NCBI GenBank assembly: GCA_963707795.1 | Contig: OY970174.1 | Location: 3,813,833 to 3,877,832, forward strand | Origin: an uncultured Acidobacteriota bacterium | GTDB lineage: Bacteria; Acidobacteriota; Vicinamibacteria; Vicinamibacterales; UBA2999 | Direction: 5' to 3' | Length of the DNA stretch: 64,000 nt | Shown here: piece after piece, positions 36,001 through 45,000 of the stretch | How positions within the stretch are numbered: the stretch's first letter is position 1 | Layout: each line of letters opens with the position of its first letter | Made by a program: the position numbers

Positions 36001-39000
36001 GGCGACGGCGGCACTGAGCACCTTGAACAGGTTGACCGACGTCGAGTCGCCGACCGCCATCTCGCCCGGTCCGGCGCCGACCAGCCGCGCGATCTTGTCG
36101 CCGATCCGCTGCGCCAGGTCGATCCAGCCGGCGGCGTTCCAGCTGCGTATCAGGCCGTCGCCCCACTCGTCCTCGACCACCTGCCGCATAGCGGCGCGCC
36201 GTCGCCGCGGGCAGCGCGCCCAGCGAGTTGCCGTCGAGATAGATCGATCCGCGGCGGTCCGCCTCGCGGAGCGCAAAGCGGCCGCGCAGCGGCCCGAGCG
36301 GATCGGCGGCGTCGAGCGCCAGGCACTCGTCCCTGGTGGATATCATCCGCACACCCCGAAGCCGCGCGCCGACCCCTTGTCGGCGCGTTCAGAACGGATT
36401 GGTCGTGTAACCCTCTCGCTCCAGCACCGCGTGGGCGGTCATCGCCGACAACGCCAGCTTCGCCACCGGCGCCAGCTCGTCCCACGTGAACCCCTGGCTC
36501 GCCACCGACTGCCCGCACACGTAAACGCGGACGCCGGCACGATCGAGCGCCTCGAGGAGCGGCAGGTTCGGATTCGCCGCACCGTGGCGGGCACGGTAGC
36601 CGGCATCGCCGAGCGCGTCGCGGGCGGCTCCCCCGTGCAGGATGACGGCCGCCTTGACCCGGTCATGCGGGACACCGGCGCGGACGTGCATGTTGACGAA
36701 CCGCGCGACGGTGTCCAATGCCGGATTGACTGCCGACGCGTCACCGGCGGCGGACGCCACGTCGAACTTGACCTTGTACTCGACCTCCGGCGACGGCACG
36801 AGGACCGCCCCTGGCACCTCGAATGTCGCGCCGTACTTCTCGATTGCCGGCCCGCTCACCTTCGCCGGCGACGAGGGCGGCGCGGATTGACGGGCCGATA
36901 CACCGTGGGCCAGCAGCACGACCGCCGCCAGCACCCAGAGACGACTGCTTGAAAAGCGCACGGGCTCGAACATGGCCCCATCATATCCAAGCGGCCCCGC
37001 TGCTCCTCCGCAGCGCCGTTTCGTGCGCGGTGCCGACCCGCATCAGATAGTCTGGTAGCGAACACTCCAGCGCTGGCCCCCGCGGCCTGGCCGGGACGTT
37101 CGAGCTCACGAAACGATGAGGGTCTGGATCACGCGCCTGTGGACGGAGCATCGCTGGCTGACTCTGGCCGGCCTCCCCCTTGCCCTGCTCGTGATCCTGG
37201 TCGTGGTCGTGCACGCGCCCTTCGTCCGGGCGCCGGTGCTGGCATGGGCCGTTGGGCAGTTGCGGGCCGCGGGAATCCGCGCCGAGGTCGAACGGCTCGA
37301 CTACAACCTGCTCACGCTGCGCGCCTCGCTCGGGCGCACGACGCTGGCGGCGATCGATCGGGAGCCGCCGTTCCTCACCGTCGAGCGCCTCGACCTCGAC
37401 CTCCCCTGGTCCATCGTCACCGGCCGTCTCGCCGTCGAGTCGCTGGCCGTCGAGCGGCCGACGCTGACCGTCGTGCGGGGTGCAGACGGGAGGCTCAACC
37501 TGCCGGAGAGTGCCGACACGGATGTCGAGTCCGAACCGTTCAACCCGATCGAGATCGGCCGCCTGGTCGTGAACGATCTGCATCTCGGCTACGCCGATCG
37601 CCCGGCTGGTTTCTCCATCGACGGACGATCGCTGCGGCTGGAGCTGGCGCGTTCGGGTCCGGCGGGAACGACGGGACGGCTGTCGCTGGACGAGGGCGCC
37701 GTGATCGAGTTCGGCGACCGGCAAACGCGCATTTCACGTCTCGACGGCCAACTCGCGTTCGACGGCCGCGCGCTCACCGTGCACGAACTGACGGTCGAAG
37801 CGCCGGAGGTCGAGCTGCGCCTCGACGGACGCGCGGACCTGCTCGGCGGCGGCTCGGACCTCGCGGCCCGGTATGAGGGACTCGTCCTCCTCGACCGGCT
37901 CGCGCCGTGGATTGCACCGGGCCAACCGCTGTCCGGCCCGGTCCGCATCGCCGGCACGGTGTCCGGACAGCTCGATGCGCCGCTCGTCGCGCTCACCCTC
38001 ACCGGTAATGACCTGGCCTGGGGCGATCAGCAGGGCGTCGGGCTCGAGCTCCAGGGTCATGTCTCGGCGGCCGCCGCCGAGATCGAACGGGTCCGGCTCA
38101 CGCTCGGCGCCGGCACCATCGACGGCCGCGCGCGGCTCGGTCTCGCTGCCGACGCCCCGTCGTCGGCGCGGCTGCGCTGGTCAGCGGTGGATATCGGATC
38201 GATCGCCCGCAGTGCCGGCGTCGAGCCCCGCGTCGCGGCGAGAGCCGACGGGCAGGCGAGCCTCCAGTGGACCGGTGCCGGCCTCGACACGGCGACGGCG
38301 CGGATTGACACCTCGTTGAGCCCGGGCCGCCCCCCACCCAATGCGATCGGGATCGGCGGACGCGTGTCGGCGTCGCTCGACAGCGGTCAATGGACGCTGG
38401 CACTGGAGCAGGTGCGAGCCGGGACACTGGACGTCAGCGGCCAGGCGGGCGGGCGGCTGGTAGGCGGCGACCCGATGTCCGCGACGCTCGGCGGACGCGT
38501 GACGGCGACGGTGGATGACCTGCCCGGGCTGACGGCCGCCCTGCAGGCTGCGGGCCTGCCGCTGCCCGAGCTCCCGCTGACCCGCGGACACGCGACGGTG
38601 GAGGCCACGCTCTCGGGGACGGTCGGTGCACCGGCCGCGGCCGGTCGTATCGCCGCCGCCGATCTCGCGGTTCCCGATCTCGACGCCGGCACGCTCACCG
38701 CATCCTTCCTGGCCGACACCACTCGGCTCCTCGTCGAATCGTTTCGCGCAGCGATCGGACCGAACACGGCGAGCGGGCGCATGGCCATCGATCTCGCGAC
38801 GCGCGCCGTGCGGGGGGACATTGCGGCAGACCTGCCTCGCGTCGCGCCGCTCGCCGCGATGCTGCCGCCGGAGACACGGCCGCACGGCGCCGCAACGCTC
38901 CAGGCGACCATCGGCGGCACGGTCGACAATCCGCGCGTGGATGTGACCGCGGCAATGACGACGCTCGAGGTGGCCGGCCAGCGGTTCGAGGACGTGGACC

Positions 39001-42000: not shown

Positions 42001-45000
42001 TCGTGCGCGGGCCCGCCACCACGCTCGTCGTCGAGGGCGCGACGCTGTCCGGATCGGTGGTGGACGACATGCGCGAGGCGTGGGCCCGCGCTGTCTTCGA
42101 CGGCTTCCTGCGCGCCGATCTCGAGGAGCTAGCGACGCGCGCCCTGGCGCGCGAGGGGTATCTGCGGCCAGCAGTCCAGATCGCGATCGACGCCGGCGAG
42201 GCTGCCGGCACCAAGCGGGTCGTGGTGCGCCTCGACCCCGGTGTCCGCTCGGCGGACCGGCGCCTGGATTTCAGCGGGCAGCAGGCGCTGTCGGCGAGCG
42301 ACCTCGAGGCGGTCGTGGAGGCGCGGCAGTTGACGCTCACCGCGTGGCTGCACCCGGCGGAGGTCGAGGCGGCGCTGGCCGCCCACTATCGCGCGCTCGG
42401 CTACCAGTCGGCGGCGGTCTCCGTCGGCACACCGGTCTTCGCCGACGCGACCGCGACCCTCCCGATCCTCGTGGACGAAGGGCCGCGGTTCACGGTGGCG
42501 AGCGTCGAGGTCACGGGCGCCACGGCGCGCCCGGAGGCCGAGGTCCGGCAGGCGTTCGCCATCGACGAGGGCACGCCGTTCGTCCCGGCGGAGCTGGAGC
42601 GGGCACGGCGCGAGGTCGAAATCGGCTACCTGCGCGACGGCTTCAACGACGTGCGCGTGTCGGTGAGCAGCATCTCCGATCCGAAGCGCCCCTCCGCGCA
42701 CGTCCGGCTCGACGTGGAGGAAGGCCCGCAGCAGGTGCTGGCCGATGTCGCGGTGCAGGGCGCCGACATCACGACCCCGGGAACGGTGCGGCGGGCGCTC
42801 GATCTCGAGCTCGGCGCGCCGGCCGACGTCAGCGACACCTACCGGGCGCAGAAGCGTCTGTACGACACCGGCGTGTTCCGCCGCGCCGACGTCGAGCTCG
42901 AGCCGATGGGCACGGTGCAGAGTACGGGCGAGCAGCCGGTGCGGGCCGTGATCTCGCTCGCCGAGGTGGCACCGTATCGGCTGCGCTACGGTGTCCGGCT
43001 GACCGACGATACCGGGCCGCTCGAGGCGAATCGCGAGTTCCGTCCGGGTTTCGTGGTGGACCTGCTGCGGCGCAACCTGTTTGGGCGCGCGATCTCGGCC
43101 GGCGTCGCGGGACAGGTCGAGGCCGATCGCCGGCTCGCCCGGGCCATCGTCTCGACCCCCCAGTTCTTCGGCCTCCCGGTCACCTCCAGCCTCTACCTGA
43201 CGCAATCGCGCCAGGACTTCGCACCCGACGGATTCAACCCGTTCGTGGAGGACGGATCGGAGATCACGGCGGAGCAGCGCTTCCGGCCCCGCGCGAACAT
43301 GGCGGTGTCGTACGACTATCGGTTCAAGCGCACGCGCGCGTTCGACCCGTCGCCGCCGACCGGCGAGCCCGCGTTCGACATCGAGGTCCACGTGGCGCGC
43401 CTCACCAGCACCTTCGCGTGGGATACGCGCGACGACCCGTTCGACGCGCGCCGCGGCTGGCTGCACTCGTCGGGCATCGAGTACGCCGGCAGCCGCCTCG
43501 GATCCGACCTCCGCTTCGTCAAGTACATCGCACAGCAATTCTATTTCCGCCCCATCGGCGACCACGTGATCCTGGCTTCGGCGGTCCGCGCCGGTGCGGC
43601 GCAGGGGTTCGGCGAGGACCTGATTTCCAGCGAGCGGTTCTTCGCCGGCGGCGGCACCAGCGTGCGCGGGTTCGCCGAGGACGGGCTGGGGGCGACCGAC
43701 TTCCTCGGCGATCCCGTCGGCGGCGCCGGTTCGCTCCTCCTCAACCAGGAAGTGCGCTTCCCGCTCTACCGCTGGGTGCGCGGCGTGGCGTTTCTCGACG
43801 CCGGCAATGTGTTCGCGCGGGCGCGCGACCTCAGGCTGTTCGACCTCGAGGTCGGTGCCGGCGGCGGGCTGCGCATCGCCACCCCCTTCGGCCTCGCCCG
43901 CATCGACTACGGCATGCCGCTCACTCGCCGCGCCCGCGAGCCGTTCGGGCGCTGGTACTTCTCGCTCGGACAGGCGTTCTGATCGCTTCGGCGAGCCGGT
44001 GTTAGGCTAGTGGCCCGTCCTGCCTCAGCGTGGGAGGGCCACCAGCCAGGCGCCAATATGCCGCTTCCGCCACACGCCTCCACCGCGTCCGCCCTCCGCG
44101 CCGACGAGTCCCTCGTGCGTGTCATGGGCACGTTCGGCCTGGCGGCGGCCATCATCAACATCACCATCGGCGGCGGCATCTTCCGGCTCCCGGCCAACGT
44201 GGCCGGATCGCTGGGCGCGGCCGCGCCGGTCGCCTACCTGGTCTGCGCCGTGGCCATGGGCCTCATCGTGCTGTGCATCGCGGACGCCGGCAGCCGGGTG
44301 TCATTGACCGGCGGACCCTACGCCTATGTCGGCACGGCGTTCGGCCCCTATGCCGGCTTCATCTCCGGCCTGCTGCTGTGGATGCTGGGGACGTTCGCGG
44401 CGGCGGCGGTCTCGACGGTGTTCGCGTCGGGAGTGGGACTGCTCACCCCGCGGCTCGCCGGCCGGGCCATGGAGTCGATGATCCTGCTGGTGACCCTGGG
44501 CTTCTGGTCGATCGTCAACCTTCGCGGCGTGGGGCTCGGCGTGCGCCTCAACTCGCTGGCCACCGTGGCCAAGCTGCTGCCGCTGCTGCTGGTGGCGGTC
44601 GGGGGCGCGTTCTTCATCGAGCCGGCCAACCTCGAATGGGCGACGACGCCGGCAGCGGCCGACGTGGCGCGCACCTCTCTGTTGCTGATCTTCGCGTTCG
44701 CCGGCATCGAGGTGGCGCTGGTGCCGAGTGGCGAGGTGCGTGACACCGCGCGAACCGTCCCGCGCGCCATCGCCGCCGCGATGCTGGGGATCACGGCGTT
44801 GTACATCGCGCTGCAGGTCGTCGCGCAAGGCGTGCTCGGCGACGGGCTTGCCGGCGCCACCATCTCGCCGCTGGCGGAGACGGCGGGCGCCGCGATGGGC
44901 CCGTGGGCGCGGACCCTGCTGCTGGTGGGAGCGACGATCTCGATGTTCGGCTATCTCGGCGGCATGACGCTGTCGATGCCACGCATGCTGTACGCGTTCG

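Follow-up and report, generated by a model that had tools for sequence, protein, structure and literature searches.

Bridges of the TamB family and Omp85 barrels (TamA, TamL, BamA, and TOC75) bear on the delivery of phospholipids, and of some outer membrane proteins (OMPs), to the outer membrane. In Escherichia coli, the module for translocation and assembly (TAM) consists of two proteins, encoded by tamA and then tamB, and two cryo-electron microscopy (cryo-EM) studies from 2026 find the terminal strand of TamB paired with strand β1 of TamA in a hybrid barrel (PMC12800296, PMC13119328); one of these reports, besides the hybrid barrel, a second state with TamB and TamA decoupled (PMC12800296), and the C-terminus of free TamB lies embedded in the outer membrane (PMC13119328). 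Other TamB-family bridges that act with an Omp85 barrel are found in the TamL-TamB pair of Bacteroidota and the TIC236-TOC75 pair of chloroplasts (PMC12045153; bioRxiv 10.1101/2021.04.25.441383), and TamB occurs with BamA in Borrelia burgdorferi, Deinococcus-Thermus, and diderm Firmicutes (PMC4494059; PMC5582053; PMC11361582). Acidobacteria have been reported to possess a canonical BamA and a second BamA, which shares an operon with TamB in the order bamA-tamB (Heinz et al., 2015, PMC4494059), and the Acidobacteriota have been proposed to lie close to the origin of TamA (PMC4494059). The elongated MlaD of Veillonella parvula has also been proposed to span the envelope, with an inner membrane MCE domain, a long helix, and a C-terminal 10-strand outer membrane barrel (PMC10665443). 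Here we describe a gene from an uncultured Acidobacteriota bacterium (assembly GCA_963707795.1, contig OY970174.1, positions 3,813,833 to 3,877,832; we call this 64,000-nucleotide stretch the window) in which a TamB-like protein and a BamA-like Omp85 protein are joined in one chain of 2288 amino acids. We put the probability that the gene encodes a real and anciently conserved form of the TamB-Omp85 trans-envelope module in a single chain, similar to TAM, at roughly three in four.

The initial annotation of the window had read this locus as a single uninterrupted open reading frame (ORF) encoding a signal-anchor, an AsmA/TamB body, a DUF490 domain, a linker, POTRA domains, a barrel, and a terminal β-signal, and all of these elements were found in that order:

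37116..43982, forward strand: whole gene, TamB-Omp85 fusion; ATG start, 2288 amino acids, stop codon 43980-43982
37158..37211, forward strand: N-terminal signal-anchor helix, residues 15-32, LTLAGLPLALLVILVVVV, read from the sequence
37116..37649, forward strand: N-terminal AsmA/YhdP/DUF748-type region, residues 1-178, putative start of the lipid-groove body; sub-threshold Pfam matches
38151..41321, forward strand: β-taco body, modelled residues 346-1402; ~70 consecutive β-strands (AlphaFold2)
40680..41684, forward strand: Pfam TamB/DUF490 domain (PF04357), residues 1189-1523
41322..41453, forward strand: helical segment past the taco, residues 1403-1446; AlphaFold2 model of low to moderate confidence
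41541..41723, forward strand: five C-terminal TamB β-strands, residues 1476-1536; model confidence about 70-84
41724..41768, forward strand: linker of 15 residues (Gly/Arg/Ala/Pro), residues 1537-1551, GGGREARASAREPAP
41769..42965, forward strand: five POTRA domains, residues 1552-1950; AlphaFold2 model, Pfam, and BamA POTRA profile matches
42975..43979, forward strand: 16-strand Omp85 barrel, residues 1954-2288; Pfam and AlphaFold2 model

Both the ORF listing and the translation give zero internal stops across the 2288 codons. In this complete stop-free frame, the G+C content at the three codon positions (GC1 0.76, GC2 0.53, GC3 0.89) is typical of real genes in the window, whose overall G+C content is ~71%. 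Around the junction between the two halves, in-frame GC3 stays at 0.84-0.96 (residues 1400-1699, 25-codon windows), and this steadiness indicates a single coding frame, with no sign of a frame change there. The protein is identical to a 2288-amino-acid product already on record (P0001 in the protein-cluster search). Mapping with profile hidden Markov models, a check that the initial annotation had proposed, places the TamB domain, the POTRA domains, and the Omp85 barrel over their Pfam cut-offs and the AsmA-type matches below.

The first 1536 residues have features of the TamB family as Heinz et al. (2015, PMC4494059) define it. Residues 15-32 form an 18-residue hydrophobic helix in which a cleavage-site-like sequence is absent, and by analogy with TamB this helix would anchor the chain in the inner membrane. 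Directly after it stands a conserved H33-x-P, whose H33 is nearly invariant in the family alignment. Residues 1-178 match DUF748 (E-value 4e-12), YhdP (4e-8), and AsmA (1e-3), all under the curated Pfam cut-offs, and the record of the identical protein P0001 carries a precomputed annotation as PF27051 (TamB_N). An AlphaFold2 model of residues 346-1545, made from a 50-sequence alignment, is almost all strand, with a mean predicted local distance difference test score (pLDDT) of 86.9, and has the taco shape of the family; its top fold matches in the PDB are E. coli TamB chains, namely 9xdc_B (E-value 3e-11), 9xdd_B, and 5vtg (template modelling score, or TM-score, 0.77). The next PDB fold matches after TamB are to human apolipoprotein B100 (E-values 2e-7 to 6e-4, very low TM-scores), which probably amounts to a generic resemblance among large lipid-binding β-sheets.

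The TamB domain itself is matched by PF04357 with an E-value of 1e-33 and 117.7 bits against a cut-off of 22.4, over profile positions 3-368 of 381. A single-sequence PDB search with the TamB end gave no match, but a profile search did, and an hhalign comparison of the family profile with E. coli TamB (probability 98.3%) gives an alignment that reaches TamB residue 1250 of 1259. The NCBIfam TamB equivalog model, by comparison, scores 67 bits against a cut-off of 825, so far under it that there is no ortholog-grade match to proteobacterial TamB. The helices modelled at residues 1403-1446 may be, by analogy, the counterpart of the DUF490 helices of TamB (PMC13119328). As in E. coli, the TamB homology extends to the last strand: RAYEFKNELNF (residues 1526-1536) is amphipathic, β-signal-like, and Phe-terminated, and it shares its position, its alternating hydrophobic pattern, and its final Phe with LDLLYQFEF (1251-1259) of E. 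coli TamB. These OMP-like strands end the protein in the TamB family, whereas here they are internal and the chain runs on into the first POTRA domain (POTRA1). Judged from the sequence, the TamB part of the fusion is complete, OMP-like end included, and at 1536 residues it is ~270 residues longer than E. coli TamB (1259).

The remainder of the chain is an Omp85 protein with its POTRA arm. The Pfam POTRA profile (PF07244; E-value 3e-28, 98.7 bits, over the cut-off) begins to match at residue 1551, and the Omp85 profile (PF01103; E-value 2e-42, 146.6 bits, also over the cut-off) matches residues 1987-2288. An AlphaFold2 model of residues 1100-2288, which crosses the junction as the initial annotation had suggested, has a pLDDT of 81.6 and a predicted TM-score (pTM) of 0.69 and contains taco, helices, five terminal strands, a disordered linker, five POTRA units of the β-α-α-β-β type, and a barrel of 16 strands. 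For three modules of 335-440 residues, the pTM of the model suggests a defined mutual arrangement of TamB, POTRA arm, and barrel. The barrel carries the L6 motif SVRGF (residues 2182-2186, nucleotides 43659-43673), which conforms to the (V/I)RG(F/Y) of Omp85 proteins, and the terminal β-signal FSLGQAF with its aromatic C-terminal residue (nucleotides 43959-43979); R2184, G2185, and F2288 are invariant across 30 diverse homologues. No signal peptide of its own precedes POTRA1.

The barrel had been described as TamA/BamA-like, and the comparisons uphold BamA and not TamA. There are five POTRA domains, compared with three in TamA, and BamA models score about twice as high as TamA models, for example 274 bits vs 146 bits in the PDB profile search. 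In the Foldseek search with the Omp85 half, the top matches are BamA chains (E-value 4e-38), with TamA at a TM-score of 0.70. The NCBIfam equivalog models score 98 bits for TamA against a cut-off of 625 and 207 bits for BamA (TIGR03303) against 297, which places the protein below canonical BamA as well, and the TamL model gives 68 bits against a cut-off of 400. On sequence and model together, the Omp85 half is BamA-like rather than TamA-like. The five POTRA domains and the higher BamA scores could also mean that this half is the main, essential BamA of the organism with TamB appended, in which case the protein would be the β-barrel assembly machinery (BAM) itself and no TAM-like accessory; TamB does work with the sole BamA in Borrelia and Deinococcus (PMC5582053, PMC4494059). 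We regard this as very unlikely. TIGR03303 stays under its cut-off, a canonical BamA is reported for Acidobacteria in addition to the second, TamB-associated copy (PMC4494059), a copy of the fusion gene in a related genome is disrupted by an insertion sequence (IS; see below), and a barrel would be a poor general insertase if it were tied to the inner membrane.

At the junction, YEFKNELNF (residues 1528-1536, nucleotides 41697-41723) is followed by the linker, which proved short, as had been claimed, and for which the model predicts no secondary structure (pLDDT 45). Across an alignment of 50 family members, linkers measure 10-30 residues (median 18), vary in sequence, and are rich in Gly, Pro, Arg, and Ala, and none of them contains a signal-peptide-like hydrophobic stretch or shows a conserved cleavage motif. 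An internal start with a signal peptide for the Omp85 half was considered and rejected, as no such feature exists in the 50 linkers. From this linker, which lacks a start codon followed by a signal peptide, it had been argued that no single indel can have joined two normal genes; the argument holds, and all 50 linkers bear it out. Alternatively, the chain could be cut in the linker after export to give an ordinary two-subunit TamB and Omp85, the fusion serving only for co-targeting and 1:1 stoichiometry. The disorder of the linker and the free C-terminus of the terminal TamB strand in E. coli (PMC12800296) are compatible with this, and a variable linker rich in Arg, Ala, Pro, and Gly would be accessible to proteases. 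However, the lack of a conserved cleavage motif and the family-wide persistence of a length of 10-30 residues, pointing to geometric limits on a tether that stays intact, make such processing unlikely in our view.

The fused architecture is found far beyond this genome. In a search of 5.8 billion protein clusters, of which the best 120 (including the identical protein) were listed, TamB, POTRA, and Omp85 domains occur together in >110 of these 120, in proteins of ~2000-2340 amino acids with identities from 60% down to 22%. A query of 341 residues spanning the junction, run against 1.84 billion representatives at 50% identity, retrieved 354 representatives at an E-value of at most 1e-30, and each of the 150 matches that were listed extends over the junction. 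Scanning species-representative genomes yielded 80 loci. Among informative loci, meaning those that extend as far as the junction, the C-terminus of TamB shares one stop-free frame with POTRA1 at 79 of 81, in contrast to TAM, whose two separate subunits, one in each membrane, meet in the periplasm, and the stop-free frame is at least 1900 amino acids long at 60 loci. The divergence of the two halves is strongly correlated between pairs (r = 0.95, 435 pairs), which accords with the two being inherited together, although a correlation would also be seen between separate genes that are orthologous.

The loci are mostly labelled Vicinamibacterales, Vicinamibacteraceae, or Luteitalea, with others labelled Candidatus Aminicenantes (including Aminicenans sakinawicola), Bryobacteraceae, Candidatus Sulfopaludibacter, and Candidatus Acidiferrales. 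The NCBI taxonomy places Vicinamibacterales in the class Vicinamibacteria and Bryobacteraceae in the class Terriglobia, both of Acidobacteriota, and for loci with the labels Bryobacteraceae and Aminicenantes a Pfam re-scan confirmed the complete architecture. Sequence comparison indicates that the fusion is widespread and anciently conserved in Acidobacteriota, in hundreds of lineages. Some copies come from metagenome-assembled genomes (MAGs) with monoderm labels, namely Bifidobacteriaceae, Eubacteriales, Acidimicrobiia, and Dehalococcoidia (L023, L029, L040, L042, L047, L048, L053, L056, L061, L066, L077, and P0122); as carriers of a diderm outer membrane gene, these MAGs probably have wrong labels or are contaminated bins.

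A few relatives appear to be split. Two ORFs are seen in P0035/L081 and P0095/L082 and at nine loci of the genome scan, as would be expected if an assembly error or read-through of a pseudogene had merged adjacent tamB and Omp85 genes in the window. However, the breaks are frameshifts, one to four per locus, at scattered positions and with homology continuing across them (L016, L021, L041, L046, L063, L065, L067, L078, L081, and L082), mostly in low-coverage long-read MAGs, one of which has only 5x coverage according to its contig name. The comparison of fused and split arrangements in related genomes, which the initial annotation had called for, thus returns one gene consistently. Together with the single frame at 79 of the 81 loci and in hundreds of protein clusters, the absence of any linker with a start codon and signal peptide, and the continuity of GC3 over the junction, this leaves an artefact with almost no probability, and we rejected it, as every relative that seems to have two genes proved to have a single gene with frameshifts or an IS in it. 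The interrupted copy belongs to one Vicinamibacterales MAG, where a ~1.3-kb insertion (L070:11162-12451) lies inside the fusion gene at query residue ~1075 and encodes an IS3-type transposase (rve integrase core and HTH_21). Gene callers split the frameshifted copies into a "TamB" gene and an "Omp85" gene, and surveys of gene organisation could be misled by this.

Compared with described systems, the fusion resembles E. coli TAM in having a signal-anchored TamB taco with a DUF490 end and an Omp85 partner with POTRA domains and a 16-strand barrel. It differs in that TAM is two proteins, in the gene order tamA then tamB, whereas the fusion is one chain with TamB before Omp85, and in the position of the TamB C-terminus, which is internal in the fusion but free in E. 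coli. By analogy the fusion would work like TAM, yet it is no member of the two-subunit TamA-TamB system, since it is one chain, has five POTRA domains, and scores under both the TamA and the TamB equivalog cut-offs. The nearest described case is the second BamA of Acidobacteria, which comes from the same phylum and is likewise a BamA-type Omp85 partner with five or more POTRA domains. In the bamA-tamB operon, however, the genes are separate and bamA comes first; because the order in the fusion is the reverse, the fusion did not arise there by simple loss of a stop codon. The article that describes these operons mentions no fusion (Heinz et al., 2015, PMC4494059). TamL-TamB and TIC236-TOC75 also differ from the fusion in being separate proteins, and TamL is a lipoprotein. 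The elongated MlaD of Veillonella shares with the fusion a single polypeptide proposed to lie in both membranes and to act as a trans-envelope lipid bridge, and a C-terminal barrel, but its fold is MCE rather than AsmA/TamB, its small 10-strand barrel is no Omp85 insertase, and it has been proposed for retrograde traffic, in contrast to the anterograde direction proposed here. The fusion unites two known partners and is no new kind of machine.

This analysis establishes the anatomy of the sequence, its predicted folds, and how far the fusion is conserved and spread among taxa, and from the characterised systems we infer by analogy the membrane topology, an uncleaved chain, lipid transport, and pairing of the terminal TamB strand with β1 of the barrel. 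In the working that we propose, the N-terminal signal-anchor would remain in the inner membrane, and the β-taco of ~1,450 residues would form a hydrophobic groove that spans the periplasm, like the phospholipid conduits of TamB and AsmA-like proteins. The complete DUF490 end, with its OMP-like terminal strands, would reach the outer membrane, where the short flexible linker would lead on into the BamA-like Omp85 part (five POTRA domains and a 16-strand barrel). The barrel, as the last part to leave the Sec translocon, would be inserted through its own C-terminal β-signal, presumably by a separate canonical BAM, and the terminal TamB strands would engage it in the manner known from E. coli, though here in one and the same chain. 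The function would be like that of TamAB, in anterograde phospholipid delivery, help with OMP assembly, or both, and the difference would lie in an obligatory 1:1 coupling in cis. As the initial annotation put it, the protein would be covalently anchored in both membranes. The biogenesis puzzle that it saw in this topology was overstated: the Veillonella MlaD, in its proposed topology, is a precedent, free TamB already has its C-terminus in the outer membrane, and the barrel would leave Sec last, with a normal β-signal.

The engagement of the barrel by TamB could take the form of an intrachain hybrid barrel in an intact fusion, with the terminal TamB strand permanently zipped to β1 of its own barrel and the five-POTRA arm looped back, and to this arrangement we give slightly less than an even chance. 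Several points weigh against the proposed working, or against this form of it. In a mean-field direct coupling analysis (DCA) of 274 sequences (effective number, Meff, 242), the maximum between the TamB C-terminus and the barrel is 1.07, compared with a maximum of 1.21 for the control of POTRA1-2 and barrel; the top intra-barrel pairs of this analysis are plausible, but it recovered few intra-barrel contacts and is underpowered. The terminal TamB strands hold a pLDDT of 79-88 in the model of residues 346-1545, where POTRA domains and barrel are missing, so that this in-silico deletion gives a hybrid barrel no support. The linker of 10-30 residues would have to connect the terminal strand, at its periplasmic end, with the N-terminus of POTRA1, which lies five domains from the barrel; this geometry requires the POTRA arm to loop back, which would be plausible. 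The IS insertion in L070 may mean that the fusion protein is dispensable, or that the population is heterogeneous. Finally, there is the small chance, weighed above, that the linker is cleaved following export.

The same confidence of the five terminal strands in the model that lacks the barrel, the DCA coupling that does not exceed its control, and the strain that a short linker to POTRA1 puts on a hybrid barrel would all suit a second arrangement of the intact chain, in which the fusion acts only as a tether. The terminal TamB strands would then form a small sheet at the membrane surface, outside the barrel, and the Omp85 part would merely be an outer membrane anchor, held by contacts between POTRA domains and TamB. 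We consider this alternative less likely than not. The terminal strand retains the amphipathic, Phe-ended pattern of the E. coli strand that is embedded in the membrane and paired with β1 of TamA (PMC12800296, PMC13119328), the pTM of 0.69 points to a defined assembly, and the DCA result carries little weight given its low power.

Around the fusion gene, the upstream neighbours in the window are a DsrE-like gene, a kynureninase gene, and a gene for a β-lactamase-fold protein, all unrelated to the fusion, and an amino acid permease gene begins 27 nucleotides downstream. Between positions 36300 and 46500, no promoter-like site was found, and the one terminator-like match is no more than shuffled sequences give. 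No second TamB or Omp85 gene was found in the 64-kb window or in the fetched flanks of 83 loci. In 60 of 84 sequences (83 related loci and the window), the fusion gene adjoins a gene for a secreted TPR protein of ~205 amino acids, which has a Sec signal peptide and no lipobox Cys and is usually encoded downstream in convergent orientation, sometimes upstream on the same strand. This protein could be a periplasmic partner of the fusion; in the window and in its closest relatives (L001, L002, L003, L005, and L021), the fusion gene does not have this neighbour. Examples are:

L006:14914-15537, reverse strand: gene for the ~205-residue TPR protein
L081:13244-13855, reverse strand: gene for the ~205-residue TPR protein
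L082:12506-13126, reverse strand: gene for the ~205-residue TPR protein
L083:7313-7954, forward strand: gene for the ~205-residue TPR protein

Elsewhere in the window, positions 27196-29511 on the reverse strand encode a 771-amino-acid protein with an unusual pairing of an N-terminal sulfatase domain (E-value 2e-45) and a long C-terminal TPR array. At 45400-47800, the G+C content falls to ~0.66 (46000-46999), compared with 0.69-0.75 in the other 1-kb bins of positions 30000-49999, and this stretch contains a RibD_C-like gene (45981-46595, reverse strand) and ORFs with no Pfam match.

Full-text literature searches, whose coverage excludes subscription-only papers, brought up no account of TamB naturally fused to Omp85, and such a protein is missing from a survey of OMP fusions. 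Database labels for these proteins are generic, either "TamB domain-containing protein" or "YaeT". The 2026 structures of TAM disagree, and the fusion constrains models of the interface between TamB and Omp85: it shows that TamB's C-terminus need not be free, and the linker of 10-30 residues to POTRA1 sets a hard geometric constraint on any such model. A widespread and ancient fusion is also independent evidence, of the "Rosetta-stone" kind, for an obligatory 1:1 unit of the two proteins, and it offers a single-chain sample for structural work. If the intrachain hybrid barrel exists, it would be natural proof, from a module conserved in a major phylum of soil bacteria, that the hybrid barrel of TamB and Omp85 is stable and functional with no need ever to come apart, and the fusion would be a candidate relic of, or a parallel to, the BamA-duplicate stage that gave rise to TamA. 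For studying, by cryo-EM and genetics, the hand-over of lipids from AsmA-like proteins to the outer membrane, such a stoichiometric trans-envelope bridge in a single chain would be ideal. For the Acidobacteriota, the fusion extends the evolutionary picture of TAM.

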